64,000 bases of DNA from Deltaproteobacteria bacterium (lineage in GTDB: Bacteria > Myxococcota_A > Polyangia > JACPQR01), in assembly GCA_016190375.1 (NCBI GenBank), contig JACPQR010000213.1, forward strand, positions 3,340-67,339, in the 5' to 3' direction. Numbering within the stretch: position 1 is the first letter of the stretch; every line of letters starts with the position of its first letter. Below are positions 14,680 to 34,783 of the stretch, piece by piece. The translations under genes were made by a program, and so were the position numbers. The notes under the pieces are model-generated. The model was not told the DNA's origin and searched no databases. It saw nothing but the letters and a program-made list of their open reading frames with translations.

Positions 14680-15882
14680 ACCGCCTTCAGCCCTCCTCCA
14701 CATCGTCCTGGCCGCGCTCATCAGCGTACGGACCCGGCTCAGCTTCGCGTCCGGCTCGAGCCCCCGCCCCATCCGGTGGAGCTGCTCGTGGTACCACCCG
14801 CCCTCCGTCGCCGCGGCGAGCACCGCGAGCCTCCCGCTCGGCGGCGTGGCCGCGGACGCCCGGGTCCTTCCGGCGAGGATCTGCATGGGGAGATCGGGCT
14901 CGAGCGCGATCGGCCGCGCGAGCCCGACGACGTCGGCGCTCCCTTCGAGGAGGACCTCTTCGATCACCCGAGGCGTGCGCAGCCCGCCGGTGAGCATCAG
15001 CGGGCAGCCCACCGCTCCCCTGATCTGCCGCGCGTAGTCCAGGAAGTGCGCCTCCCGCTCCCGCGTCGAGTCTCTGGGGGCCACGAACATCGCCGGTCGC
15101 TCGTAGGTGCCGCCGGAGATCTCCAGGAGCTCGACGCCCTCCTGGTCGAGCGTGCGCGCCACGACCGTCGCCTCCTCGTCGCCGAAGCCGCCGCGCAGGA
15201 AGTCCGACGAGTTCAGCTTCACCGACACGGCGAACCGGGGACCGACCGCCCTCCGCACGGCCCGGAGGCTCTCGACGAGGAAGCGCATCCGGTTCTCCAG
15301 AGGCCCGCCCCAGGCGTCGGTGCGGAGGTTCGTGAGAGGCGAGAGGAACTGGCTGAACAGGTAGCCGTGCGCCGCGTGGAGCTGCACGCCCGAGAAGCCG
15401 GCCTCCTGGGCCAGCCGGGCCGCGCCCGCGAAGTGGCCGACCAGCGCGGAGATCTCCTCACCCGTGAGGGCGCGCGGGGCCACGAACATCCCGCCCAGGC
15501 GCAGAGGCACCGCCGAGGGCGCTACCGGAGCGCCGTTGACCGACCGAGGGCTTTGACGGCCGGCGTGGTTGAGCTGGACGAAGGCGACGCCTGGCCCGGA
15601 GGCCGCGGCCGCCGCCCAGCGTCGGAACGCCTCGAGCGGCGGCCCCTTTCGCGGGCGCACGAGGACGTTCCCGGGCTCTCCGGCCCCGCCCGGCTCGACC
15701 ATGACGTTGCCAGTGATGAAGAGCCCCGCGCCGCCGCGCGCGAGCCTGCGATACAGCACCTCGAGCTCGGGCGACGGCTCACCCCCGGGTGTGGCCATCG
15801 TCTCGCTCATCGCCGCCTTGGCGATGCGGTTGGGCAGCGTGAGCCCCGAGCGGAGCGACAGCGGCCGGGCAAGCACGCTCAC
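14677..15882 (-). CDS. Old Yellow Enzyme family NADH:flavin oxidoreductase (FMN-dependent ene-reductase); GTG start overlapping upstream stop (GTGA)
   Basis: LTLPNRIAKAAMSE, HAAHGYLFSQFLSPLTNLRTDAWGG, LEISGGTYE and a TIM-barrel OYE pattern. The N-terminal 337 aa of the ORF-track ORF is an antisense artefact. Confidence 0.8.
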   Translation of the reverse strand: MSVLARPLSLRSGLTLPNRIAKAAMSETMATPGGEPSPELEVLYRRLARGGAGLFITGNVMVEPGGAGEPGNVLVRPRKGPPLEAFRRWAAAAASGPGVAFVQLNHAGRQSPRSVNGAPVAPSAVPLRLGGMFVAPRALTGEEISALVGHFAGAARLAQEAGFSGVQLHAAHGYLFSQFLSPLTNLRTDAWGGPLENRMRFLVESLRAVRRAVGPRFAVSVKLNSSDFLRGGFGDEEATVVARTLDQEGVELLEISGGTYERPAMFVAPRDSTREREAHFLDYARQIRGAVGCPLMLTGGLRTPRVIEEVLLEGSADVVGLARPIALEPDLPMQILAGRTRASAATPPSGRLAVLAAATEGGWYHEQLHRMGRGLEPDAKLSRVRTLMSAARTMWRRAEGG

Positions 15883-16559
15883 CGAGCGGTCTCCAGCGCC
15901 GGTCGCACCGCCCGAAGCACCTCCGAGGCGACCCCGAGCTGGCTCACGACGTCGCGGGTCAGGTCCTTCAGGCCCGCGGCCTCGAGCACCGGCGAGAGCC
16001 GCACAGCGCGGCAACCTCCAAACAACGAAGGCTCGAGCTCGAAGAGCGCGCCGGCCGCCCTGGCGATGGGCCCCTTGCCGTGCGTCATGTTGACGAGCAC
16101 GAGCCGGCCCCCGGGCCTGAGCACCCGCACGAGCTCGCCCACCACCGCCGGGAAGTCTGCTTCGGGGAGCAGGTCGAACATGTAGTTGTTGAACACCACG
16201 TCGAAGCTCGCATCGGGGAAGTCCAGCGCATAGGCGTCGCCCACGGCCAGCTCCCAGCTCCCGCCCGGAGCGACGCGCGCGGCCCGTCTCCGCGCTCGCG
16301 CGAGCATCGCCGGGGTGAGATCCACGCCCACGTTCCGGCCGCGGGGGTTGGCACGCAGGGTCTGGGCGAACAGGAGCCCCGTGCCCACCGCAACCTCGAG
16401 CACGGCCTCGCCATCCTGCAGGGCTGCACGCTCGAGCGCCAATCGCCGGGCGCGACCCTCGGCGAGCCCGGCCCAGAGATCGTACACGCTCGCCAGTCGG
16501 GTATAGACGCCAGGCACCTCGGGCCGGCCGAGGGTCTTCTCGAGAATCGCTTCGTTCAT
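15879..16559 (-). CDS. class I SAM-dependent methyltransferase (UbiE/COQ5-like)
   Basis: Motif I VLEVAVGTGLL, post-I acidic residue VGVDLTPAML, motif LRPGGRLVL. Start at M179 of the ORF, ATG overlapping the ArsR stop (ATGA). Confidence 0.8.
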   Translation of the reverse strand: MNEAILEKTLGRPEVPGVYTRLASVYDLWAGLAEGRARRLALERAALQDGEAVLEVAVGTGLLFAQTLRANPRGRNVGVDLTPAMLARARRRAARVAPGGSWELAVGDAYALDFPDASFDVVFNNYMFDLLPEADFPAVVGELVRVLRPGGRLVLVNMTHGKGPIARAAGALFELEPSLFGGCRAVRLSPVLEAAGLKDLTRDVVSQLGVASEVLRAVRPALETAR

Positions 16560-18507: not shown

Positions 18508-19242
18508 ATGCGCGGCGAGCGTCTCGACGAGGCGTTGGTGCGCCTCGGCCTCGCGCCTTCGCGAGAGCGGGCGCGGGCGCTGATCCTGGCCGGCAAGGTG
18601 CTGATCGACGCGTCCGTCGCCGACAAGCCTGGCACGCGAGTGCCCGTCGGCGCCTCGGTCGAGCTGCTCGTGCCCGATCACCCGTTCGTCTCGCGCGGCG
18701 GCGTCAAGCTCGAAGGAGCCCTCGAGGCCTTCGGGATCGATCCGCAGGGCGCCGTCTGCGCCGACATCGGCGCGTCGACCGGGGGCTTCACGCACGTCCT
18801 CCTCAAGCGGGGTGCGCGCAGGGTGTTCGCGGTCGATGTCGGCTACGGCCAGCTCGCCGACAGCCTGCGCCGCGACCCGCGTGTGGTGCCGATGGAGCGA
18901 ACCAACGTCCGCTACCTCGCACCCGGCGCGTTCGACGAGCCGCCGTCGCTGGTCGTGATCGACGTCTCGTTCATCAGCGTCTCGAAGATCCTGCCCGCGC
19001 TCGTGCCGCTCTCTGCCCCCGGCGCCACGTTCGTCGTGCTTGTCAAGCCGCAGTTCGAGGTCGGTCGCGAGAAGGTCGGCAAGGGCGGCGTGGTCCGCGA
19101 CGACGCGCTGCGCATGGCCGCCGTCGACTCCGTCTCGGCCGCCGCCCGCGCGCTCGGGCTCGTGGAGGTGAGCCGCGCCGACAGCGTACTGCCCGGACCC
19201 AAGGGCAACCGCGAGGTCTTCCTTCACCTCCGGCGGGTCTGA
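18508..19242 (+). CDS. tlyA: TlyA family rRNA (cytidine-2'-O)-methyltransferase / hemolysin A
   Basis: S4 domain N-terminus (RLDEALVRLGLAPSRERARALILAGKVL), FtsJ-like GASTGGFTHVLLKRGARRVFAVDVGYGQL, K-D-K motif. Confidence 0.9.
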   Translation: MRGERLDEALVRLGLAPSRERARALILAGKVLIDASVADKPGTRVPVGASVELLVPDHPFVSRGGVKLEGALEAFGIDPQGAVCADIGASTGGFTHVLLKRGARRVFAVDVGYGQLADSLRRDPRVVPMERTNVRYLAPGAFDEPPSLVVIDVSFISVSKILPALVPLSAPGATFVVLVKPQFEVGREKVGKGGVVRDDALRMAAVDSVSAAARALGLVEVSRADSVLPGPKGNREVFLHLRRV

Positions 19243-19718
19243 TCGCCTCGCACCCAGGCCCCGGACTTGCCACCACGCTTGGAGACGAGGGCCAGCGAAT
19301 CGATGGTGACGCTCCTCTCGATCGCCTTGACCATGTCGTAGACGGTGAGGGCCGCCACCGAGGCGGCGACGAGCGCTTCCATCTCGACGCCGGTCCGGTC
19401 CGTGGCGCGAGCGACGGTCTCGATCCCGAGCACGCCGGTCTCGGGCGAGGGCTCGAACCTCACCTCGCAGGAGGACAGCGCGATCGCGTGACACAGGGGA
19501 ATCAGCTCGGGCGTTCGCTTGGCCGCCTGGATGCCCGCGATCCGCGCCACCGCGAGGACGTCGCCTTTCGGGACCTCTCCCGAGGTGATGGCACCGAGCG
19601 TCGCGGGCGTCATCCGCACGAGGACGCGGGCCCGCGCCTCGCGCGCCGTCACGGCCTTCGAGGCGACGTCGACCATCCGGGCCTCGCCGCGGGCGTTCGT
19701 GTGGGTCAGTCTGGCCAT
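19224..19718 (-). CDS. moaC: cyclic pyranopterin monophosphate synthase MoaC
   Basis: MARLTHTNARGEARMVDVS...GDVLAVARIAGIQAAKRTPELIPLCH..GVEMEALVAASVAALTVYDM matches MoaC across its length. Start moved to M5. Confidence 0.9.
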   Translation of the reverse strand: MARLTHTNARGEARMVDVASKAVTAREARARVLVRMTPATLGAITSGEVPKGDVLAVARIAGIQAAKRTPELIPLCHAIALSSCEVRFEPSPETGVLGIETVARATDRTGVEMEALVAASVAALTVYDMVKAIERSVTIDSLALVSKRGGKSGAWVRGDQTRRR

Positions 19719-19747
19719 CGAACGGACCATATGCTAGACGCCTGGCC

Positions 19748-20674
19748 ATGCGGAAGATCGTGATCATCGGTGCGGGTCCGGCCGGGCTCACGGCCGCGAT
19801 CTACGCGGCGCGGGCGAACATGGCCCCCCTGTGCATCGAGGGCGTCGCGGCAGGCGGCCAGCTCATGACCACGAGCGACATCGAGAACTACCCGGGCTTC
19901 CCCAGGCCGGTGACCGGGCCCGAGCTGATGCAGCTCTTCCGCGACCAGGCCTCGCGCTTCGGGACCGAGTTCATCACGGACGACGTGACGCGGGTCGATT
20001 TCACGCACTGGCCGTTCAAGGTGTGGATCGAGGATCGCTCGATCGACGCCGCGACCATCGTGATCTCGACCGGCGCCAGCGCCCGCTGGCTGGGAATAGA
20101 GTCCGAGCAGGCCTTGCGCTCGCACGGGGTCAGCGCCTGCGCCACCTGCGACGGCTTCTTCTTCCGCGGGCAGGACGTCGCGGTCGTGGGCGGAGGCGAC
20201 ACGGCGATGGAGGAGGCGCTGTACCTGTCGAAGCTCTGTTCGACGGTGACGGTGATCCACCGCCGCGACAAGCTCCGCGCGTCGAAGATCATGCAGGAAC
20301 GGGCGGCCGGAACGCCGAACATGAAGTTCGTGTGGAACAGCAAGGTGCTGCAGGTCGAGGACGTCGACCAGAAGACCGTCACCGGTGTCGTGGTCGAGGA
20401 CGTCGCCACCGGCGAGAAGAAGACCGTCGCGGTCCAGGGCCTCTTCGTCGCGATCGGTCACGAGCCGAACACGGCGCTGTTCCGCGGCCTTCTGGAGGTG
20501 GACGAGAACGGCTACCTGCGCACGAAGCCTGGGACGACTCAGACCAGCATCGCAGGCGTCTTCGCGTGCGGCGACGTCCAGGATCACGCCTACCGGCAGG
20601 CGGTCACCGCCGCGGGGACGGGCTGCATGGCCGCGCTCGAAGCGGAGCGCTGGCTCGGGGCGAAGGGCGTCTGA
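19748..20674 (+). CDS. trxB: thioredoxin-disulfide reductase
   Basis: FAD site IIGAGPAGLTAAIYAAR, redox CATCDG, NADPH site VAVVGGGDTAMEEALYL, GVFACGD. Confidence 0.95.
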   Translation: MRKIVIIGAGPAGLTAAIYAARANMAPLCIEGVAAGGQLMTTSDIENYPGFPRPVTGPELMQLFRDQASRFGTEFITDDVTRVDFTHWPFKVWIEDRSIDAATIVISTGASARWLGIESEQALRSHGVSACATCDGFFFRGQDVAVVGGGDTAMEEALYLSKLCSTVTVIHRRDKLRASKIMQERAAGTPNMKFVWNSKVLQVEDVDQKTVTGVVVEDVATGEKKTVAVQGLFVAIGHEPNTALFRGLLEVDENGYLRTKPGTTQTSIAGVFACGDVQDHAYRQAVTAAGTGCMAALEAERWLGAKGV

Positions 20675-20677
20675 GCC

Positions 20678-21142
20678 TTGAGCGATCGCGCCAAGGCCCT
20701 CGCCGGCATCAACATCTTCTCCGGGCTCGGCGAGCCGGCCCTGGAGCAGCTCGCGAGCATCGCCAGCGAGGAGGCCCACAAGCTGGGCGGGTTCGTGTTC
20801 CACGAGGGCAGCCCGGGCGATGGGCTCTACCTGATCCTGTCGGGCAAGGTGCGGATCAGCCGCGAGGTCGCGGGGATGGGCGAGGAGGCCCTGGCGATCC
20901 TCCAGGCCGGCGAGACCTTCGGCGAGATGTCGATCATCGACGGATCGCCGCGATCGGCCGACGCCCGCGTCCACGAGAGCTGCATGCTCCTGGTGATCAA
21001 GAAGGCGGACATGGAGGACCTGCTCTTCCTCCACAAGGACCTCGCGTACGAGATCCTCTGGAGCTGGGTGAGGACCCTGTCGAGCCGGCTTCGCGAGACG
21101 AACGACAAGATGACGTTCCTCTCCGTGTCGGGGAAGTTTTGA
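20678..21142 (+). CDS. stand-alone cyclic-nucleotide-binding (cNMP/CAP effector) domain protein, TTG start
   Basis: LGGFVFHEGSPGDGLYLILSGKVRIS...GETFGEMSIIDGSPRSADARV shows the canonical beta-roll and phosphate-binding cassette (GE..GE...RSA). 154 aa with no output domain. Confidence 0.75.
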   Translation: MSDRAKALAGINIFSGLGEPALEQLASIASEEAHKLGGFVFHEGSPGDGLYLILSGKVRISREVAGMGEEALAILQAGETFGEMSIIDGSPRSADARVHESCMLLVIKKADMEDLLFLHKDLAYEILWSWVRTLSSRLRETNDKMTFLSVSGKF

Positions 21143-22158
21143 GCTTCGCGCTCGGCCTCGGCCTGACGAACGAGTGCAACCTCTCCTGCCCGCACTGCTA
21201 CCGCGCTCCGGAGCGGCTGGAGCGGCTCGAGCTGGGTGAGGTGCGCCGCGTGTGCGAGGCGGTCCCGCTGCGCTCGGTCAACCTCGGAACGGGCGAGAAC
21301 GGCCTGCACCCCGGCCTCCGCTCGGTCCTCGGATATCTGCGCGACAGGAGCATCCCGACGAGCATCAGCTCGAACGGGCTGACGATCGAGCTCCTCTCCG
21401 ACGAGGAGCTCCGTGCGCTTCGCGAGGTCGAGGTCTCGATCGACTTCCCTGACGAAGAGCGGCAGGACGAGTGGCGCGGACGAGGAAGCTTCGGGACCGC
21501 GCTCGCGGCGCTCGAACGGGTGCGCCGGCTCGGAATCGACGCCTCGATCGTCGCCGTGATGATGCGCGCGAACCACGACCGCCTCGCCCCGATCGCGCAC
21601 CTCGCCGCGCGGTACGGCGCAACCCTTCGCGTCAACGTCTACGTCCCTGTCCGGACCGCGGTCTACGCGCCGACCTACGCCGAGCACTGGGCGGCCTGGC
21701 GGATGCTCCTCGCCGAGACCTCCCTCGTGGCCTGCACCGAGCCGATCCTCGGCGTCGTGCTGGGCCGCCCCGTCTCGACCGGGTGCGGACGATCGACGTT
21801 GCGCGTGACGCCCGCCGGCCGCGTGCTGCCCTGCGTCTACTGGCCCGAGGCCGGGGCCGCAATCGACGTCCTCGAGACGCAGGGCGCCCGCATCCTCGAG
21901 CATCCGGCGTTCCGCGACAGCCACCAGATCCCCCGCGCCTGCACGGGCTGCAACTTCGTCGACGCCTGCCGCGGCGGCTGCGCCAGCAGGCGCCTGCTCG
22001 CCGGCCGCCTCGACCAACCCGACGAGTACTGCCCGGTCGCCCGTGGCGACCACCTCCAGCTCCCCTGCACCCTCGCTCCACCCCGCCAGCCCCTCAAGTC
22101 CTCGAGCGCCTGCACGACCATCCTGACGGGGACACGCACTACCCCCGCAACCCACTGA
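21139..22158 (+). CDS. radical SAM enzyme with C-terminal SPASM domain (peptide/protein-maturase class); TTG start overlapping upstream stop (TTGA)
   Basis: CNLSCPHCY (CxxxCxxC) at residues 14-21. SPASM Cys array C..x..CTGCNFVDACRGGC (Cx2Cx5Cx3C) plus a distal Cys. Confidence 0.8.
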   Translation: MSFALGLGLTNECNLSCPHCYRAPERLERLELGEVRRVCEAVPLRSVNLGTGENGLHPGLRSVLGYLRDRSIPTSISSNGLTIELLSDEELRALREVEVSIDFPDEERQDEWRGRGSFGTALAALERVRRLGIDASIVAVMMRANHDRLAPIAHLAARYGATLRVNVYVPVRTAVYAPTYAEHWAAWRMLLAETSLVACTEPILGVVLGRPVSTGCGRSTLRVTPAGRVLPCVYWPEAGAAIDVLETQGARILEHPAFRDSHQIPRACTGCNFVDACRGGCASRRLLAGRLDQPDEYCPVARGDHLQLPCTLAPPRQPLKSSSACTTILTGTRTTPATH

Positions 22159-22258
22159 GATCACGTTCGATTCAAGGCATACCGCGCGTTTCGTGAAGGC
22201 CGCCGCGGAATCGCCGACACGGGCCGCTCGTTCCATGCTCATACCCCGCATGTCGCCG

Positions 22259-23197
22259 ATGGCTCGATTCAAGAACGTCTTCGATTCCCCGCCGGTCCCC
22301 GGCGTCAAGCAGCTCCTGAAGTGGACCGTGGTCGATTCGGTCAGCGGGCGGAGGAGACGGGCTCCGCGAAGGGCGCCCGTGCCCGTCGTCGCCAACGACG
22401 GACGTCGCCTCCGCGAGGCAGTGGGCCTCGAGGCAGCGACGTGGGTCGGCCACGCGACGTTCCTGATCCAGACCGGCGGGCTCGCGATCCTGACGGACCC
22501 CATCTTCTCGACTCGCATCGCGACCATTCGGCGGAACGTGCCGCCTGGTCTGCGCATCGAGGACCTTCCGGCGATCGACGTGATCTTGATCTCGCACAAC
22601 CATCGCGATCACCTCGATCTCCCCACGCTGCGCCGCCTCGGCCCACGGCCCCTCGCGCTCGTGCCCTCCGGCGTTGGCCGCACGATGCGCAGGGCCGGGC
22701 TCGAGCGCGTCATCGAGCTCGAGTGGTGGCAGTCCCACGACGTCGCCGACGTTCGATTCACGTTCGTCCCGTCACATCACTGGTCGGGGCGAAGCATCGC
22801 CGATCGCAACGCCTCGCTCTGGGGCGGATGGGGGATCCTCTCGCCGCGTCGCCGGCTCTACTTCGCCGGCGACACCGGCTACTTCCCTGGGTTCCGCGAG
22901 ATCGGCGAGCGCCTCGGCCCGCTCGACGCCGCGCTCCTACCGGTCGGATCGTACGACCCGCGCTGGTTCATGCGAGCGCAGCACATGGATCCGTCCGATG
23001 CCGTACGGGCCTTCGTCGACCTCGGCGCCGACCGGCTGATCGCGATGCACTGGGGGACCTTCAAGCTCACCGACGAGCCGCTCGACGAGCCCCCTCGGCT
23101 CCTCGACGAGGAGCGCCGGCGCGCAAACCTCGATCCCCGTCACATCGTGGTCCCCGCGATTGGACAGACCATCGAGCTCGGAGCTCCTGCGGGCTGA
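22259..23197 (+). CDS. MBL-fold metallo-hydrolase (NAPE-PLD-like)
   Basis: HATFLIQTGG..ILTDPIF, ISHNHRDHLD (HxHxDH), later His/Asp ligands. Start uncertain: alternatives are GTG 22193 and ATG 22235. Confidence 0.75.
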   Translation: MARFKNVFDSPPVPGVKQLLKWTVVDSVSGRRRRAPRRAPVPVVANDGRRLREAVGLEAATWVGHATFLIQTGGLAILTDPIFSTRIATIRRNVPPGLRIEDLPAIDVILISHNHRDHLDLPTLRRLGPRPLALVPSGVGRTMRRAGLERVIELEWWQSHDVADVRFTFVPSHHWSGRSIADRNASLWGGWGILSPRRRLYFAGDTGYFPGFREIGERLGPLDAALLPVGSYDPRWFMRAQHMDPSDAVRAFVDLGADRLIAMHWGTFKLTDEPLDEPPRLLDEERRRANLDPRHIVVPAIGQTIELGAPAG

Positions 23198-23303
23198 ACC
23201 CCACAAGCGGAACCGCGCCGGCTCCCACGGGGCCGTCCATTCGCCGAGGATCCTGGCGAACGACCGCGGCACGTGGCTTGCTCGAACCTCGGTCGAGGTT
23301 CCG

Positions 23304-23837
23304 ATGCGTCCCTCGAGCCACCAGGACGACGTGACCAGGCGCGCCAGGGAATCACCTCCTGCCCGTCCGCCCTCGCTCATCCGTGCGCGAGCCCTCGCGG
23401 CCGTTCTGGAGAGGATCTGCCGCTTCCTTGCCGTCACGGAAGACAAGTGCGCCCTGCACGAGGCCGCGCGGCGCGCCGAGGCCCGACGGCTCGACCTGGC
23501 CAGCCCCACGCCGGAGGTGCGCGAGTTCGCGCGGATCGAGGCGCGCGGTCTGGCGGAGTTCGCCCCTTCGAGGCCGAGGACGAGGGCCGGCCGGTCCCGC
23601 GGGCGTGCGGAGCCCGAGTCCTTCCGCGTCGGGCGCCTCGTGGACGTGGGTGCCGGCGGTCTCGGTATCTCGACGGTGCACCCGCTCGAGGCCGGTGCCT
23701 CGACCCGCGTGCGCGTGACGGAGCCCTCGACGGGCCGCGTCTACGCCTTCGGATGCGTCGTGGTCTGGAGCCGGACGGGCGACGAGTCCGCCATGGGCGT
23801 GCGCTTCGTGGGTCCGGCCGCGCTACTCGAAGACTGA
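23304..23837 (+). CDS. PilZ domain protein (putative c-di-GMP receptor)
   Basis: C-terminal FRVGRLVDVGAGGLGISTVHPLEAGASTRVRVTEP..GCVVVWSR..MGVRFV fits the PilZ beta-barrel pattern. Start could instead be 23160. Confidence 0.5.
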   Translation: MRPSSHQDDVTRRARESPPARPPSLIRARALAAVLERICRFLAVTEDKCALHEAARRAEARRLDLASPTPEVREFARIEARGLAEFAPSRPRTRAGRSRGRAEPESFRVGRLVDVGAGGLGISTVHPLEAGASTRVRVTEPSTGRVYAFGCVVVWSRTGDESAMGVRFVGPAALLED

Positions 23838-23845
23838 GGTAGCGA

Positions 23846-24376
23846 CTACTCGCTGACCTCGCAGGCATCGAGCGACAGGCTCGCCGACAGCCCGACCGTT
23901 CCGGCCGACGCCGAACCGTCCTGGACGGCCAGGCCCTGACAGTCGAGACCGATGTCGACCGACCCGGCGTACTCGTCGTACCCGCCGAAGACGACCGTAC
24001 AGCTCCCCGCCAGATCCTCGAAGGCCGCCCCGGACGCCTCCGCCGACACGGTGGCCGTCCCCGGCTCGACCGCCGGCTCGATGGGCGAGACGATCCCGAA
24101 CGCCTCGAGCCCGAACGGATCCGGCTCGGTCCGCTCGATCCAGAGCGAGAGGGTGTCGCCCTCGGGCGCACGCTGGATCTTGCACGCCCCGGTGAACGGT
24201 CCCGCGTCGAGGAGAGTGTCCTCGGGAAACACGAAGCCGGTCTGACCGGTCTGGGCCCCGTCCGAGCGAGTCATGTTGACGGTGCCCGACAGGATCGTCC
24301 CGTCGTGCTCGGCCGTGCACGCCACCATTCGCAACGCCGCGACCGCGACCAGGAGGAGATGCTGGAGCTTCTGCAT
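23846..24376 (-). CDS. lipoprotein, hypothetical
   Basis: MQKLQHLLLVAVAALRMVACTAEHDG lipobox. D/E/T/F-rich mature part. Confidence 0.55.
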   Translation of the reverse strand: MQKLQHLLLVAVAALRMVACTAEHDGTILSGTVNMTRSDGAQTGQTGFVFPEDTLLDAGPFTGACKIQRAPEGDTLSLWIERTEPDPFGLEAFGIVSPIEPAVEPGTATVSAEASGAAFEDLAGSCTVVFGGYDEYAGSVDIGLDCQGLAVQDGSASAGTVGLSASLSLDACEVSE

Positions 24377-24466
24377 TACCCTCGTAGGAGCAACCGCCGT
24401 GCCCGCGTTTTCCACGAGTTTCCCGCCTCCCGCACGCTGACGGCCGTTCACGCCGTCAAGCATGGT

Positions 24467-25288
24467 TCACAGATCGGGGATCATCCAGTTGTCCCCCCAG
24501 AGGCTCGCGCCGCCGTCGATGTAGAAGGTGATCCCGGTCACGAAGTCGGCGGCACTGGAGCCCAGGAAGCAGATCGCGTGCGCGACCTCGTCCACGGTCC
24601 CTATCCGCTTCAGCGGCGTCCTGCGGCGACCCGCCTCGATCAGCTCGGGCGGGTACTTGTCCGTGCCGCTCGACTTGATGACACCCGGGGCTATCGCCAC
24701 CGCGCGGATGCCGAACTGCGCCCATTCCACCGCGAGGGTCCGCGTCATGTTCTCGACGCCGGCGCGCGCTGCACCGGTGTGCACCATCCCCGGGAAGCCG
24801 CGCGCGATGTTGGCGATCACGTTGACGATCCGCCCTCGCCTCACGGGGATCATCGCCCGCGTCGCCACCGCCTGGGTCACGTACCAGGTGCCGGACAAGT
24901 TGTTCCGGATGACGGCATCCCATCCCTTGGGCTTTAGCGACTCGGCCGTCGTCGGGAATTGCCCGCCCGCATTGTTCACGAGGAGGTCCACGCGACCGAA
25001 GCGCGACAGGCTCTCGCCCACGAGCGCTTCGACCTGTTCGACCTCGCGGATGTCACAGACCACCGCGAGGCACTCCGCCCCCGTCTCGCGGATCCGGCCG
25101 GCCGCCTCCTCGAGGACCTCCGCACGACGACCGGCGATCACGACACGAGCCCCGAGCGACCCGAGCTCGAGCGCCGTGCCGAGGCCGATGCCCGTTCCTC
25201 CTCCCGTGACGATCGCCACCTCGCCCGCGAACAGCCCGGCCTTGAAGGGAGACTCCACGAGACCGCGACTGTAGCACGCCGATCCCAA
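24467..25288 (-). CDS. SDR family short-chain dehydrogenase/reductase (trans-2-enoyl-CoA reductase-like)
   Basis: TGGGTGIGLG Rossmann motif, NNAG, catalytic tetrad region. 273 aa. Confidence 0.85.
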   Translation of the reverse strand: MGSACYSRGLVESPFKAGLFAGEVAIVTGGGTGIGLGTALELGSLGARVVIAGRRAEVLEEAAGRIRETGAECLAVVCDIREVEQVEALVGESLSRFGRVDLLVNNAGGQFPTTAESLKPKGWDAVIRNNLSGTWYVTQAVATRAMIPVRRGRIVNVIANIARGFPGMVHTGAARAGVENMTRTLAVEWAQFGIRAVAIAPGVIKSSGTDKYPPELIEAGRRRTPLKRIGTVDEVAHAICFLGSSAADFVTGITFYIDGGASLWGDNWMIPDL

Positions 25289-25292
25289 CCGA

Positions 25293-27887
<2,595 letters not shown>

Positions 27888-27917: not shown

Positions 27918-28775
27918 TCAACGGCAGCGGAATCGTGCGAGGAGGGCGGCCCCGAACACGAGGGCCAGGAGCCCGATTCCGCCGACCCTGCCCGAGCGGG
28001 GGACCGGGGCGGCCCCGCACCCTCCGTCGAGGACGGTCTCCGGACAGACCCTCTGATCCCAGTCGTTGACCATCGTGCACTCGCCCGCCGTGTACGTCTC
28101 GCAGAGGATCTCCACGTCGTCCTGCGCCAGCTCCCTCCGGGTCGCCGCGTCGCCCCAGCTCGCGTAGGGCCACATCACGGCCGACTCGATCTGGGTGTGG
28201 TTGAAGCCGATCATGTGGCCGACCTCGTGAGTCAGGACGCTCTGAAGGTCGAAGGCCATGGAGCCAGGGATCGGATCGAGGACGAACTCGTGGTCGGCGC
28301 CGTTCAGGTCGATGTCCGCGTCGAGGATCTCGCCCGCGGCGCGGCGCGTGACGACCGTCGTGCAGGCGATGGCGTCCTGGCATTCGGTCCCGTCCCAGTC
28401 CTCGTAGCGGAAGATGATCGAGTTCTTCCCGTTGATGTCCTCGGAGGTCATGTTCGAGCCGCGGTCGGCGGTGAACCCCGCGAAGTAGAACTGCATGTCG
28501 GTGCAGGGCTGCGAAGCCCAGGCGGAGAAGGACCGCCCGGCGGCATCCCGGATGCTCTCGCCGTCCAGGAGCGCGCCGGGCCCGACGTTCAGCCCCGACG
28601 AACCGGTCGTCTGGATGTTGTAATAGACGAATCTGTTCGGCCAGTAGTACCAGAGGCTCTGGTGAACCTCGCTGCGCAGGTGCTCCCCCGCGAGTACCGG
28701 CGGCGCCACGACGGTGAGGACCGCCGTCACCAGCGGCAGGGCGACCGCCACGCCTTTCAGGTGTTCCCGGAACAT
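27918..28775 (-). CDS. secreted M10 (matrixin-like) zinc metalloprotease with MYXO-CTERM sorting tail
   Basis: Signal peptide. HEVGHMIGFNHT (HExxHxxGxxH). C-terminal GGCGAAPVPRSGRVGGIGLLALVFGAALLARFRCR (Cys-rich + TM + basic) fits MYXO-CTERM. Confidence 0.75.
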   Translation of the reverse strand: MFREHLKGVAVALPLVTAVLTVVAPPVLAGEHLRSEVHQSLWYYWPNRFVYYNIQTTGSSGLNVGPGALLDGESIRDAAGRSFSAWASQPCTDMQFYFAGFTADRGSNMTSEDINGKNSIIFRYEDWDGTECQDAIACTTVVTRRAAGEILDADIDLNGADHEFVLDPIPGSMAFDLQSVLTHEVGHMIGFNHTQIESAVMWPYASWGDAATRRELAQDDVEILCETYTAGECTMVNDWDQRVCPETVLDGGCGAAPVPRSGRVGGIGLLALVFGAALLARFRCR

Positions 28776-29327: not shown

Positions 29328-30235
29328 ACCGCGACGACCTCGGCGTCGTCCCTGGGCGCCGGCAGCGCGAAGAAGAGCGCCACACCGCCGGCGATCGCCG
29401 CGGCACCGAGCACGGGCCCGAGCCAGAGCCACGTGCTCGTGCCGCCGCCACCGGGCGTACGGCCGCCACCGGGATCGCTCGCCCCCCGCGGCGCCTGGCG
29501 CGCGAGCCCGAGCGCCGTCAGCCGTTCCTGGAGCCGCGCGTCGAACCGGGCGCCACGCTCGACGACGGCACGAAGCGTGGCCTGACCGTCGGAGGAGCTC
29601 AGTATGAAGACCTCGACGCGGCCGGACGCGACCGCCCGCGCGATCACTAGAGTGTCGACGCCCAGCGCCTCGCCGAGGGCCCTCGTTCGCCCGACGGGCA
29701 GCGGCGGCAGGGGCGAGTCGGGCGGAGGGCGGACCTCGTCGGCGAGGCTCACGATCGCCGGTGGATGAACCTGCGGGTCGCATGCGAGCCGCGGATCCAG
29801 ACGGGCCCCGAGCGCCAGCGCCTCGCCCGCACCGTCGCGATCCTCGATCGTCAGCCGGACGGTGGCGAGGTCGAAGGCCAGCCGCACGGGCACCGCGAGG
29901 TCGTCGAGCCATGGCAACGCGTCGTAGGCGGCCGCGAGCGCGACGGCCACGGCGCTCTCGGCCCGCTCGAGCTCCGTGAACGACTCCATCTGCGCCCGTG
30001 CCTCGCCCGCCGCGCGCTCGAACGCCGCGAGCGCCTCGGCCCGCGGCATGAGGCCCTCCAGGCGCTCGAGCGACGATCGCGCGTTGGTCTGCGCGAGCGA
30101 GGGCAACAGCTCGAGCGCGGCCGCGCGATTGCCGCCAGGCCCGGCGATCGTCACGACGGCCGCCGACTGGGCGGCCGCGAGGCGAGTCGCGCACACGAGC
30201 GCCAGGACGAGGCCAGTCCGCACGCGCCCGAGCAT
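29309..30235 (-). CDS. hypothetical protein with signal peptide and C-terminal TM anchor
   Basis: MLGRVRTGLVLALVCATRLAAAQSA signal. C-terminal WLWLGPVLGAAAIAGGVALFFAL TM segment. Confidence 0.45.
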   Translation of the reverse strand: MLGRVRTGLVLALVCATRLAAAQSAAVVTIAGPGGNRAAALELLPSLAQTNARSSLERLEGLMPRAEALAAFERAAGEARAQMESFTELERAESAVAVALAAAYDALPWLDDLAVPVRLAFDLATVRLTIEDRDGAGEALALGARLDPRLACDPQVHPPAIVSLADEVRPPPDSPLPPLPVGRTRALGEALGVDTLVIARAVASGRVEVFILSSSDGQATLRAVVERGARFDARLQERLTALGLARQAPRGASDPGGGRTPGGGGTSTWLWLGPVLGAAAIAGGVALFFALPAPRDDAEVVAVWERQP

Positions 30236-30251
30236 AGCAAACTGCTACACT

Positions 30252-31960
30252 GTGAGCCTCGCTGTGCCCTCCTCACGGGAGTCACAGGGGCGCTTCCAGG
30301 TGCTCCACCGGATCGCGTCCGGCGGAATGGCCGAGGTGTTCCTCTCGCGCTTCGTCGGGCCCCAGGGCTTCGAGCGGCTGGTGGCGCTCAAGAAGGTCCG
30401 TGCGCGATTCACCGAGGACCCGAGGTTCGTCGAGCGGCTGGTGTCCGAGGCGAGGATCATGGTCCGGCTGTCCCACGGGAACATCTGCCAGGTCCTCGAT
30501 TTCGGGATCATGGACGGGCAGTACTTCCTCGCGATGGAGCACGTCGCGGGCTGCGACCTGGGCATGCTCATGCACGGCCTCGCCCGGCTGGACGAGGCCT
30601 TCCCGCCCGTGCTCGCCGCCTACGTCGTCGCCGAGATCTGCCGAGGGCTCGACTACGCCCACCGCCGGACCGACGAGGCCGGCAGGCCCCTCGGGATCGT
30701 CCACCGGGACGTCACGCCCGAGAACGTCCTCATCAGCTACGACGGCGAGGTCAAGCTCACCGACTTCGGGATCTCGCAGGCACGCGGAGTCGAGATGCCC
30801 GCCGAGCGCGAGGGCGTCGTCCTCGGAAAGGCCGCGTACCTCGCGCCGGAGCAGCTCGCGGGCGGAAGGGGCGACGCCCGCACGGACGTCTTCTCCGTCG
30901 GGATCCTCCTCTGGGAGATGCTCGTCGGCCTGCCGCTCTTCCGCCGCTCGACCGACCGCGAGACGATCGAGGCGGTCGGGCGCCTGCAGATCCAGCCGCC
31001 CTCACGGCTGAGGCCGGGGATCCCGCCGGAGCTCGACGCCATCACGCTGCGGGCCCTCGCGCGACGGCCCGGGGATCGGCATCCGGCGGCGGCAGCGCTG
31101 CTGGAGGACCTCTCGCGCTTCGTGGCGCTGCGAGCGCCGGGCATGACCGGCGCGACGCTCGCCGAGCTGGTCGCGCGGCAGATGCCGAGGCGCGGCAACA
31201 CCGACGAGACCCTGGCGACCGCGCAGGTCACCGTCCCCCGCGAGGTCGTCTCGCTCGCCGTCGACCCGACGCCCGCCCCCGAGCCAGGCATGCCGCCGGC
31301 GCTGCCTGCGCTCCCACAGCGGCCGAGCACGGTCCCCTTCGAGGCACCGCTCAGACAGCGCACCGGCCGCGCGCGGGCCGTCGCGGTCGGGGTCGCGACC
31401 TTCGCCGTGGTCGCGGTCGGAATGGCCATCGCGCTCACACGCCAGCCCAGCCGCTCCCTGACGGCGGTGCAGCTCGGCGCCCCCGCGGCGACGTCACCCG
31501 ATGCGGGAGGGACGGCTCATCCGGCCGAGATCGGGCCCGTCGACCCGCCGCGCGCCCAGGATGCCGCTCCTCGTCCGGGCGCGGTGCCCGGCGCACCGCC
31601 GCCCTCCTCGGCGCCGGTCGCTGTCGAGGGCGCCGAGCCGCCAGGCGCCCCGACGAAGGCTCCGGCGAGGGGACCCGACGAGCCGCGGGTGCGTCGAACC
31701 GGCGTCGAGCGCCCCGAACCTCCGCCGGGCCGACCGCCGGCGGCTGGAGGGTTCATCAACGTCAACGCCACTCCCTGGGGCAAGGTCTACGTGGACGGAC
31801 GGATCATGGCGAACGAGACCCCGGCGAGGCTGCCTGTGAGCGCGGGGCCTCATTCGGTGAAGGTCTACTTCGTGACGGCGGCGAGGTACTCTCCCGCCAG
31901 GCAGGTCGTGATAGAGGCTGGTCAGACGAGGGGTATGATGTTCGTGCTCTCGGAGTCGCC

Positions 31961-31964
<4 letters not shown>
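30252..31964 (+). CDS. Ser/Thr protein kinase (Hanks type) with TM segment and C-terminal PEGA domain; tentative GTG start
   Basis: GGMAEVF...VALKKV (subdomains I-II), HRDVTPENVL, DFG, APE. C-terminal FINVNATPWGKVYVDGR..TPARLPVSAGPHSVKV is a PEGA domain. Confidence 0.85.
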
Positions 31965-33319: not shown

Positions 33320-34783
33320 TTGTCGGTCCCGAGGAATGCTCACGTCACGGGTCCGTTGCGGCACGGCGAGATGCTTGGCCGCTACCGAATACTCGGTCAC
33401 ATCGCAGACGGAGGGATGGCCTCGGTCTACCTCGCCGAGCTCGAAGGGCCGGGTACGTTTCACAAGCACGTCGCCCTCAAGGTGATCCATCCGCACCTCA
33501 GAAGGGATCCGACCTTCGTCAGGATGTTCGGCGACGAGGCGCTCATTGCGGCGCGCCTGCACCATCCGAACATCGTGCAGACGTTCGACCTCGTCGAGTC
33601 CAACGGGCACCTCGCGATCGCGATGGAGTACGCGCCGGGCCTGCCGGTGAGCGCGCTCCGAAACGGCCACCTGATCGATCCCGGGGCCGAGCTGGTCGCG
33701 TACATCGGTGCCGAGGCGGCGGCCGCGCTCGACCATGCGCACAACCTGACCGACGCGCTCGGCCATCCGCTCCACATCGTGCACCGCGACGTCTCGTCGT
33801 CGAACGTGCAGATCGGGCTCGACGGGCGAGTCCGTCTGGTGGACTTCGGTATCGCGCGAGCGAGCGACTGCGCCGTCATGACCACGGCCGGCATGATCAA
33901 GGGGACGCTCGCGTACATCGCCCCCGAGCGATTCACGACCGGAGCGGCCACGCCGCAAACGGACGTGTGGTCCCTCGGCGTGGTTCTCTGGGAGGTCCTC
34001 GCGAGACGCCGGCTCTTCAGACGCCCGACCGACGCCGACACCGCCGCGGCCGTCCTGATGGACGAGGTTCCGCCGCTCCTGCAGATCCGACCGGAGATCC
34101 CGGCCAAGGTGTCCGCGGTCGTCCACCGTGCGATCGAGCGGGACCCGGCCAGGCGGTTCGCCAGCGCCGCCGAGCTCGAGAGCGCCTTGCGCCAGCACCA
34201 CCCGGCCAAGATCGAAGAGGTCCTCGAGCCGCTCCGCGCCGCGCTCGCGCCGTTCCGGCAGGATCAGCTCGGCAGGGTGCGCCGCCTCCTCGGGCGCGGC
34301 GAGCCGGAGGCCGGGACGGTGACGGCCAGCCCTTCGCCCGGCCTCGCGCCCGCCGCGGAGGAGCCCTCGTGGACGCCGGCGCCTGCCCGATGGAATGGAA
34401 AGCGCCGCTTCGTCGCGCTCGCGCTCGTCCTCGTCGCCGTGACCGCGGCCTGGCTTCTGGTTCGAGCGACGCGCACCGACCCGGAGCGGGCGACAGCGCA
34501 GGGCGCCCCGGCGGCGGATTCGAGCTCCGACCCGGGTCGCCGCAAGAGCGCTCGTGAGCGCGCGCCCGACTCGCCTTTGGTCGAATCGACGGCAACCGAG
34601 CCGGGGGCCGACCGACCGACCGCGCCGCCGACCGACCGCGCCGCTCCCCCTCCGGCGACCTCGGTCTCGAGACGGGCCGGCTGGCCGCGCCCCGCCGGGT
34701 TGACCTACGACCACGACGTCTACCGGCGTCGCTCGAAGAACCGGTCGTCAAGGACGGCGGGCCCGGCGACCCCGCGCCCATGA
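33320..34783 (+). CDS. Ser/Thr protein kinase (Hanks type) with C-terminal TM and low-complexity tail
   Basis: GGMASVYLA..VALKV, HRDVSSSNV, DFGIAR, APE. Start may instead be M18 (33371). Confidence 0.8.
   Translation: MSVPRNAHVTGPLRHGEMLGRYRILGHIADGGMASVYLAELEGPGTFHKHVALKVIHPHLRRDPTFVRMFGDEALIAARLHHPNIVQTFDLVESNGHLAIAMEYAPGLPVSALRNGHLIDPGAELVAYIGAEAAAALDHAHNLTDALGHPLHIVHRDVSSSNVQIGLDGRVRLVDFGIARASDCAVMTTAGMIKGTLAYIAPERFTTGAATPQTDVWSLGVVLWEVLARRRLFRRPTDADTAAAVLMDEVPPLLQIRPEIPAKVSAVVHRAIERDPARRFASAAELESALRQHHPAKIEEVLEPLRAALAPFRQDQLGRVRRLLGRGEPEAGTVTASPSPGLAPAAEEPSWTPAPARWNGKRRFVALALVLVAVTAAWLLVRATRTDPERATAQGAPAADSSSDPGRRKSARERAPDSPLVESTATEPGADRPTAPPTDRAAPPPATSVSRRAGWPRPAGLTYDHDVYRRRSKNRSSRTAGPATPRP

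Follow-up and report, generated by a model that had tools for sequence, protein, structure and literature searches.

An orphan radical SAM/SPASM enzyme behind a conserved trxB-CNB gene pair in a Polyangia genome

The enzyme and its genes

We analyzed a 64-kb stretch of contig JACPQR010000213.1 from a member of the Polyangia (the whole stretch is called the window here), with a focus on a gene for a radical S-adenosylmethionine (SAM) enzyme with a SPASM domain, referred to below as rSAM. The gene lies directly behind genes for a thioredoxin-disulfide reductase (trxB) and a stand-alone cyclic-nucleotide-binding (CNB) protein, and ahead of genes for a metallo-beta-lactamase (MBL)-fold hydrolase and a PilZ-domain protein (Table 1). 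All five genes had been named in an initial annotation of the locus, and profile searches confirm each of them. The annotation had also placed the TTG start of rSAM inside the stop codon of the CNB gene, and this is how the sequence reads: in TTTTGA, the TTG (21139-21141) overlaps the TGA (21140-21142). The trxB and CNB genes are separated by 3 nucleotides (nt), the CNB gene and rSAM by −4 nt, and rSAM and the hydrolase gene by 34 nt, with the hydrolase and PilZ genes overlapping. Because the gaps are at most 34 nt and the other junctions are overlaps, a peptide gene cannot fit between these genes, and no sulfatase gene was found among the scanned neighbors, in agreement with the earlier report of neither a precursor peptide nor a sulfatase.

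The TTG start is credible because six homologs in an alignment of 27 family sequences begin at the equivalent site, with the pattern M-x-F-x-x-G-L-G-L-T-N-x-C. A gene caller based on the G+C content of third codon positions (GC3) missed the rSAM frame, that frame being open from 19831 on, and the frame was settled by direct calculation of its GC3 (0.91) and by homology.

The product scores 56.6 bits against Pfam Radical_SAM (PF04055; cut-off 29.5) and 35.3 bits against the NCBIfam SPASM model TIGR04085 (cut-off 27), and it is a SPASM-domain member of the radical SAM superfamily. The motif C13-x3-C17-x2-C20 is present within CNLSCPHC, which the annotation had read correctly but numbered as residues 14-21 of a 340-residue protein; it occupies residues 13-20 of 339. 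The Cx2Cx5Cx3C auxiliary array that it described is also there, as C268-x2-C271-x5-C277-x3-C281. Further cysteines are found at C216, C232, C298, and C325, and C216, C232, C268, C271, C277, C281, and C298 are invariant in the 27-sequence alignment.

An AlphaFold2 model (mean confidence, pLDDT, 91.9) predicts a SPASM/twitch fold with a partial TIM barrel and a C-terminal auxiliary-cluster domain. The model is similar in fold to SuiB (5v1s), CteB (5why), anSME (4k37-39), SkfB (6efn), and BlsE (7vob), with template modeling (TM) scores of 0.6-0.68 at sequence identities of 14-22%. Only 12 residues precede the first cysteine, and the model opens at beta-strand 1, with no N-terminal domain and no recognition element (RRE) for ribosomally synthesized and post-translationally modified peptides (RiPPs), whereas SuiB and CteB carry an N-terminal RRE. 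The family of the enzyme also differs from the solved SPASM/twitch enzymes in having an extra conserved C-terminal motif, K-x2-S-A-C-T-T.

Its profile scores place the enzyme in no curated or characterized equivalog family: the best NCBIfam equivalogs, MftC (97 bits against a cut-off of 265), GeoRSP (81 against 400), PqqE (43 against 381), and ArsS (32 against 300), all fall far short. Several known types were considered and set aside. MftC (TIGR03962) matches over nearly the full length, and like the window enzyme it combines the CxxxCxxC motif with a SPASM domain that holds two auxiliary clusters, but membership in the mycofactocin system is contradicted by its score, by the lack of a small open reading frame (ORF) or RRE gene, and by the narrow gaps. 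The MftA peptide, the MftB chaperone, MftD, and MftE are missing, and there is no glycosyltransferase near the window copy. An identity as anSME is likewise rejected, as that equivalog is absent from the best 25 of 43 NCBIfam matches and the sulfatase on which anSME acts was not found among the scanned neighbors; with a profile of the rSAM family, the sequence of the anSME structure reaches no more than 24 bits. The marks of a RiPP maturase are likewise missing: the enzyme has no RRE or PqqD-like domain, and no precursor ORF occurs here or in the canonical cassettes described below. For ArsS (TIGR04167, with a DUF3641 C-terminal domain), which its score rules out, the match is confined to the N-terminal core. 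An anti-phage reading (Pycsar or viperin) was also set aside, as PADLOC gave domain-level matches only (42 bits for the CNB part of PycTIR and 40 bits for the pVip core), and in this test no cyclase and no TIR or transmembrane effector domain for Pycsar was present.

An unnamed SPASM family and its usual gene cassette

Homologs of the enzyme are abundant (6,590 among the candidates scored), the nearest non-self sequence being 56% identical and almost all of the best listed about 50%. The window enzyme is 47-56% identical to 199 family members, and a search of GTDB species genomes gave 582 family matches, with the Binataceae, Acidobacteriota, Rokubacteria/Methylomirabilota, several alphaproteobacterial families, Myxococcota, and Planctomycetota among the taxa represented. 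In the 27-sequence alignment, which has the window sequence as its first row, 76 columns are invariant, including all eight C-terminal cysteines and the K-x2-S-A-C-T-T tail. The window enzyme retains all 76, every cysteine included, and by sequence it is a full member of this unnamed "GLGLTNEC...SACTT" SPASM family. The family has no curated name, and literature searches found no paper on it or on its gene cassette.

The usual setting of the family was read from 80 species loci (L009-L088), with flanks of up to 10 kb per side. A DoxX/DoxD gene accompanies the enzyme in 68 of them, a family 2 glycosyltransferase (GT2) of the polyprenyl-phosphate-sugar-synthase type in 57, a GT-C-like (MptB-like) membrane protein in 54, and a DUF2064 protein in 51; the DUF2064 protein of a Rokubacteria example scores 165 bits against the TIGR04282 cut-off of 134. 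A GT2, DUF2064, or GT-C-like gene is present in 62 loci and all three in 47. The listed loci of Binataceae type, and some from Acidobacteriota, show the order rSAM, DoxX, GT2, DUF2064, GT-C-like gene, and a second SPASM enzyme is encoded nearby in 18 of the 80. Clustering of stop-to-stop ORFs from these loci was contaminated by shadow ORFs typical of high GC content and was used only for picking representatives, which were then checked against profiles. At least one canonical partner (DoxX, GT2, DUF2064/TIGR04282, or GT-C-like gene) occurs within 10 kb in 79 of the 80 loci, which makes the separation of the window enzyme unusual: none of the canonical partners was found in the 64-kb window, which extends from −21 kb to +42 kb around it.

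Some of these loci also carry genes with a link to selenium. An oxidoreductase-SelD fusion and/or a TIGR04553 substrate-binding protein is encoded in 23 of the 80. The fusion protein scores well above both relevant cut-offs (TIGR03169, 455 against 310 bits; selD TIGR00476, 295 against 125), and the substrate-binding protein just passes that of TIGR04553, "putative selenate ABC transporter" (252 against 250 bits), and is accompanied by its ATPase and permease and by a UbiE-like methyltransferase. The two homologs nearest to the window enzyme likewise have GT-C-type genes in their surroundings: P0044 sits in a cluster of rSAM, a second rSAM gene, a 178-residue gene, GT2, PMT_2, and a rhodanese, and P0002 has a weak PMT_2-type ORF at the edge of its contig, some 5.7 kb upstream. 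The selenium-linked neighbors and the P0044 rhodanese suggest that the family serves a pathway for small molecules or glycoconjugates with a link to selenium or sulfur.

Two characterized systems offer partial parallels to this cassette. As with MftC, the family is usually found with an MftF-like GT2 and a CofC-like transferase. With the ArsS/TIGR04282/TIGR04283 system (the "rSAM/selenodomain" system of Haft, whose current annotation is arsenosugar biosynthesis), the cassette shares a GT2 and the true TIGR04282 member noted above, to which a methyltransferase, SelD, and the putative selenate transporter are often added. It differs from that system in that the window rSAM is a SPASM enzyme and the cassette GT2 is not TIGR04283 (38 against 182 bits), and the window has none of these genes. 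The window does contain a UbiE/Methyltransf_25-type methyltransferase gene about 5 kb upstream of rSAM; it gave no tblastn match at 1e-3 to the methyltransferases of the family cassettes.

Two further genes recur beside the family enzyme, neither with a Pfam or NCBIfam match. One, of about 192 residues, is divergent and directly upstream of rSAM in 25 loci, many of them from Acidobacteriota, and the other, of about 410 residues, is convergent and downstream in 6 loci.

The trxB-CNB pair and the slot behind it

The CNB protein consists of a cNMP_binding domain, with no second domain. Its phosphate-binding cassette, FGEMSIIDGSPRSA in the translation, is intact and of the FGE...PRSA type, with the Glu and Arg present. 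The C-helix is followed by the end of the chain at residue 154, with no helix-turn-helix, and the CRP, FtrB, and NtcA models reach it only through their N-terminal sensor part, with scores far below their cut-offs. As it lacks a C-terminal helix-turn-helix, a role as a classical transcription factor of the CRP/FNR type is ruled out, although it shares the canonical CNB beta-roll and the FGE...PRSA cassette with those regulators. Stand-alone CNB proteins are known, and the window protein matches one of 149 residues from Streptomyces coelicolor (PDB 2pqq; E = 5e-17). What sets it apart from 2pqq-like proteins and from CRP/FNR regulators is its conserved genomic partner, trxB. Its C-terminal tail, RLRETNDKMTF, is conserved among orthologs.

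Homologs of the CNB protein number in the thousands, the best of them 59-91% identical, 154-160 residues long, and from the Polyangiaceae, Myxococcales, and other Myxococcota. We examined 88 ortholog loci: 80 came from a metagenome scan, five were reached through contig look-ups, and three belong to the nearest relatives. Where at least 700 nt of upstream sequence was available, trxB lies immediately upstream on the same strand in 33 of 53 loci; the spacing between the two genes ranges from a few to about 100 nt. The MoaC gene is frequently found beyond trxB in divergent orientation, and the order MoaC(-)/trxB/CNB is also seen in L005, L006, and L171. The conserved unit across the Polyangia and other Myxococcota is MoaC(-)/trxB-CNB. 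Between the window and its two nearest relatives, the ratio of nonsynonymous to synonymous substitution rates (dN/dS) is 0.11-0.13 for the CNB gene and 0.11-0.12 for trxB. The translated TrxB shows a CATC redox motif. Literature searches turned up no published description of a trxB and stand-alone CNB pair.

The adjacency of the CNB gene and rSAM is far more restricted. Among 67 ortholog loci (59-84% identity) with at least 700 nt downstream, not one has rSAM behind the CNB gene. It is found there only in the two nearest relatives, the metagenome contigs L169 and L170, whose CNB, trxB, and rSAM genes are 89-90%, 86-90%, and 82.5-82.7% identical to those of the window, and in which the rSAM TTG begins after a 4-nt spacer (TGA-CGCC-TTG). 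In L171, where the CNB protein is 84% identical, PAP2, TlyA, MoaC(-), trxB, and CNB are arranged as in the window and are followed by a lipoprotein-like gene. In L004 (CNB 81% identical), trxB and CNB are followed by opposite-strand Thiamine_BP and MFS genes with no rSAM, and beyond these lie orthologs of the window hydrolase (70% identical), lipoprotein (49%), and short-chain dehydrogenase (73%), with no PilZ homolog found at the syntenic position. In L005 and L006 (CNB 72% identical), an unrelated 193-residue gene abuts the CNB stop. The position between the CNB and hydrolase genes is a variable slot, which rSAM fills in one shallow clade of three sequences.

Seen from the side of the enzyme, the picture is much the same. 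Within 10 kb, a CNB-domain gene turns up in only one of the 80 family loci, where it lies on the opposite strand at a distance of about 6 kb and is 34% identical. One locus likewise has a trxB-like gene (25% identical), and none of the 80 has an MBL or PilZ homolog. The coupling that the initial annotation pointed out is physically real and recurs in L169 and L170, but the pairing is not conserved in related genomes beyond this three-genome clade, and by the test that the annotation itself had set it is largely refuted as a conserved system. The pairing as such reflects either a local accident of operon structure or recent recruitment, and it gives no ground for naming a new kind of system.

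The hydrolase matches human NAPE-PLD (PDB 4qn9; E = 7e-71). The first 38 nt of the PilZ ORF overlap the hydrolase gene, and its true start is uncertain because the domain match is confined to residues 156-218. A scan of 19.0-25.5 kb for promoters and terminators, uninformative for this high-GC genome, found no sigma-70-like promoter; its one terminator-like site, weak and on the minus strand, was no more than shuffled sequence yields. Searches for Rfam families and tRNAs over the full window gave no matches. Farther downstream, at about 6-10 kb, are two genes for Ser/Thr protein kinases, with genes for ClpB and a matrixin-type peptidase between them and the rSAM region; these are typical myxobacterial content.

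Table 1. Genes and sites in the window, with comparison loci (L numbers) given as locus:coordinates
Feature	Position	Strand	Evidence and remarks
UbiE/Methyltransf_25-type methyltransferase	15879-16499	-	
MoaC	19224..19730	-	Pfam MoaC 175.9 bits; divergent from trxB; part of the conserved ancestral neighborhood
TrxB, thioredoxin-disulfide reductase	19748..20674	+	TIGR01292 399 bits (cut-off 343); first gene of the operon
Stand-alone CNB (cNMP_binding) protein, 154 residues, TTG start	20678..21142	+	Pfam cNMP_binding (PF00027) 74.5 bits (cut-off 27.5)
Radical SAM/SPASM enzyme, 339 residues, TTG start	21139..22158	+	Profile matches; diverged orphan of a large uncharacterized family
TTGA start/stop overlap of the CNB and rSAM genes	21139..21142	+	Read from the sequence
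NAPE-PLD-type MBL-fold hydrolase	22193..23197	+	Lactamase_B_2 159.7 bits; ancestral synteny
PilZ-domain protein	23160..23837	+	Pfam PilZ 31.7 bits (cut-off 22.5), residues 156-218; N-terminal extent uncertain
Putative lipoprotein	23846..24463	-	No Pfam/NCBIfam match; 49% identical to a 176-residue gene of L004
Short-chain dehydrogenase	24467..25288	-	adh_short_C2 175 bits; 73% identical in L004
ClpB	25293-27887	-	
Matrixin-type peptidase	27918-28775	-	
Ser/Thr protein kinases (two genes)	29976-31964; 33320-34783		
trxB followed by CNB gene	19748-21142 in the window; L005, L094, L104-L168, others		
Slot behind the CNB gene, intervals compared	21142-22193 in the window; L004:962-2707; L171:4510-5287; L005:6465-7046		
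Example canonical cassettes of the rSAM family	L012:9974-14131 (Binataceae type); L020:8697-14985 (Rokubacteria type)		Outside the window
Selenium-linked family loci	L021, L033, L046, L048, L050, L051, L056, L060, L084, others; e.g., L050:3144-6224, L076:5643-6551		Outside the window
About 192-residue gene upstream of family rSAM	L074:9107-9682	-	No Pfam/NCBIfam match
About 410-residue gene downstream of family rSAM	L073:10891-12120	-	No Pfam/NCBIfam match

Origin and role of the orphan enzyme

The window copy gives every sign of being maintained. Against L169 and L170, rSAM has a dN/dS of 0.18-0.23 at a dS of 0.37-0.46, a dS that resembles those of trxB and the CNB gene, and its codon usage is native. 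Purifying selection, together with the retained invariant residues and the native codon usage, indicates a functional gene that has been inherited vertically within the clade. Recent horizontal transfer of rSAM was considered and set aside, given the native codon usage and a dS in line with that of the flanking genes. With its cluster ligands kept, the enzyme of this clade would still be active.

At the same time, the enzyme has departed from its family at about 10 positions that are at least 90% conserved, seven of them at least 96% conserved. These seven changes, T77S, N117S, W118F, Q169V, D174A, L178P, and F187W, are present in the window, L169, and L170 alike, and nine of 10 replacements tested are fixed in all three clade members. 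Each of the 199 other family sequences has at most two of the 10 tested sites in common with the window sequence. Radical SAM enzymes usually bind substrate at the C-terminal ends of the barrel strands and in the loops that follow, and the secondary structure of the model puts several of the substituted residues in such places. These residues probably line the active site. The replacement of conserved positions, along with the loss of the partner genes, suggests an altered substrate.

On balance, we think it probable that rSAM is a relocated and remodeled orphan that is co-expressed with trxB and the CNB gene and has probably shifted its substrate, and that it is neither a peptide maturase nor part of a conserved system gated by cyclic nucleotides. 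In this scheme, trxB and the CNB gene would form a conserved Polyangia operon with a variable slot downstream, and an orphan copy of the family gene would have moved into that slot in a recent Polyangia ancestor, where its neighborhood would have lost the canonical partner genes and about 10 conserved positions would have been replaced. The gene is presumably co-transcribed with trxB and the CNB gene and probably translationally coupled to the latter. From the family context, the lack of an RRE, and the lack of a precursor gene, we infer a non-peptide substrate, most likely a glycosyl-, lipid-, or nucleotide-linked small molecule. A bolder version, which we consider improbable, is that the enzyme was pulled from a glycosyltransferase cassette, possibly a selenium-linked one, remodeled, and recruited to the trxB-CNB operon as a new enzyme tied to cyclic-nucleotide or thiol-redox signaling, for example one gated by the CNB protein or acting on it.

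Several points weigh against the relocation of a remodeled orphan with a shifted substrate. The canonical partners may lie elsewhere in the genome, of which 64 kb was searched, and the enzyme could then still work in its ancestral pathway. As the family is uncharacterized, only the gene neighborhood and the missing RRE point to a non-peptide substrate. The tight coupling (−4 nt in the window and +4 nt in the relatives) has been kept across three genomes at a dS of about 0.4-0.5. This is consistent with selection to keep rSAM expressed together with trxB and the CNB gene, and the coupling may reflect a functional link within the clade. The clade itself comprises three sequences, two of them on truncated contigs, and the locations of the substituted residues come from secondary-structure position rather than from coordinates.

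In one form of such a link, the CNB protein would be a dedicated cyclic-nucleotide-gated regulator or scaffold of the enzyme, at least in the window clade. The overlapping start and stop codons are in keeping with this, as are the persistence of the adjacency in L169 and L170 and the purifying selection that acts on each of the three genes, and the clade-specific substitutions in rSAM could reflect adaptation to a new partner. We nevertheless regard it as unlikely: the CNB protein has undergone no clade-specific change at positions at least 85% conserved among 119 orthologs, its conserved neighbor is trxB, and the slot behind it holds unrelated genes elsewhere, one of which, in L005, also abuts the CNB gene. 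The suggestion in the initial annotation that the CNB protein acts as a regulator, scaffold, or substrate of the enzyme finds no comparative support, given the absence of rSAM from all 67 CNB loci outside the clade and the single, distant, opposite-strand CNB gene among the 80 family loci. A role for TrxB as the functional partner, feeding electrons directly or via thioredoxin to the clusters of the enzyme or to a substrate disulfide, is very improbable, even with one apparent operon in all three clade genomes. TrxB is of the ordinary housekeeping type, above the TIGR01292 cut-off; many genomes have trxB beside the CNB gene with no rSAM behind it, and family loci lack trxB apart from the one distant match. 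The usual electron donors to radical SAM clusters are flavodoxin or ferredoxin systems.

It is also conceivable, if rather improbable, that the enzyme matures a peptide or protein in the manner of anSME, MftC, or a sactisynthase, with a substrate encoded elsewhere or in the form of the CNB protein or TrxB itself. MftC is its nearest curated model, and its nearest structures include the peptide-modifying SuiB, CteB, SkfB, and anSME (TM score about 0.65), but the small-molecule enzymes BlsE, viperin, and DesII match the fold about equally well. The equivalog scores and the low score of anSME against the family profile speak against a maturase, as do the absence of an RRE domain and of an MftB- or PqqD-like gene and the absence of precursor and sulfatase genes from both the window and the canonical cassettes. 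No new Cys or Ser motif has appeared in the CNB protein of the clade. Finally, the position of the gene might be a neutral rearrangement, with the enzyme unchanged in function and still serving a DoxX/GT2/DUF2064/GT-C pathway encoded elsewhere. Gene order in the Myxococcota is fluid, the enzyme keeps every invariant family residue, and the search for partners was confined to the window. Set against this are the replacement of highly conserved positions, nearly all fixed in the clade, and the retention of a partner within 10 kb in almost every other species, and we find a purely neutral move improbable as well.

Within the preferred reading of a relocated, remodeled orphan, the window enzyme would be a natural variant for comparison with the canonical members of its family. 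The trxB-CNB pair, conserved in myxobacteria with or without an enzyme behind it, hints at a link between cyclic-nucleotide signaling and thiol-redox control. The family cassette, spread over several phyla, points to an uncharacterized glycoconjugate or organo-chalcogen pathway in soil bacteria, and this canonical and partly selenium-linked cassette is a more interesting lead than the pairing of the CNB gene with rSAM.

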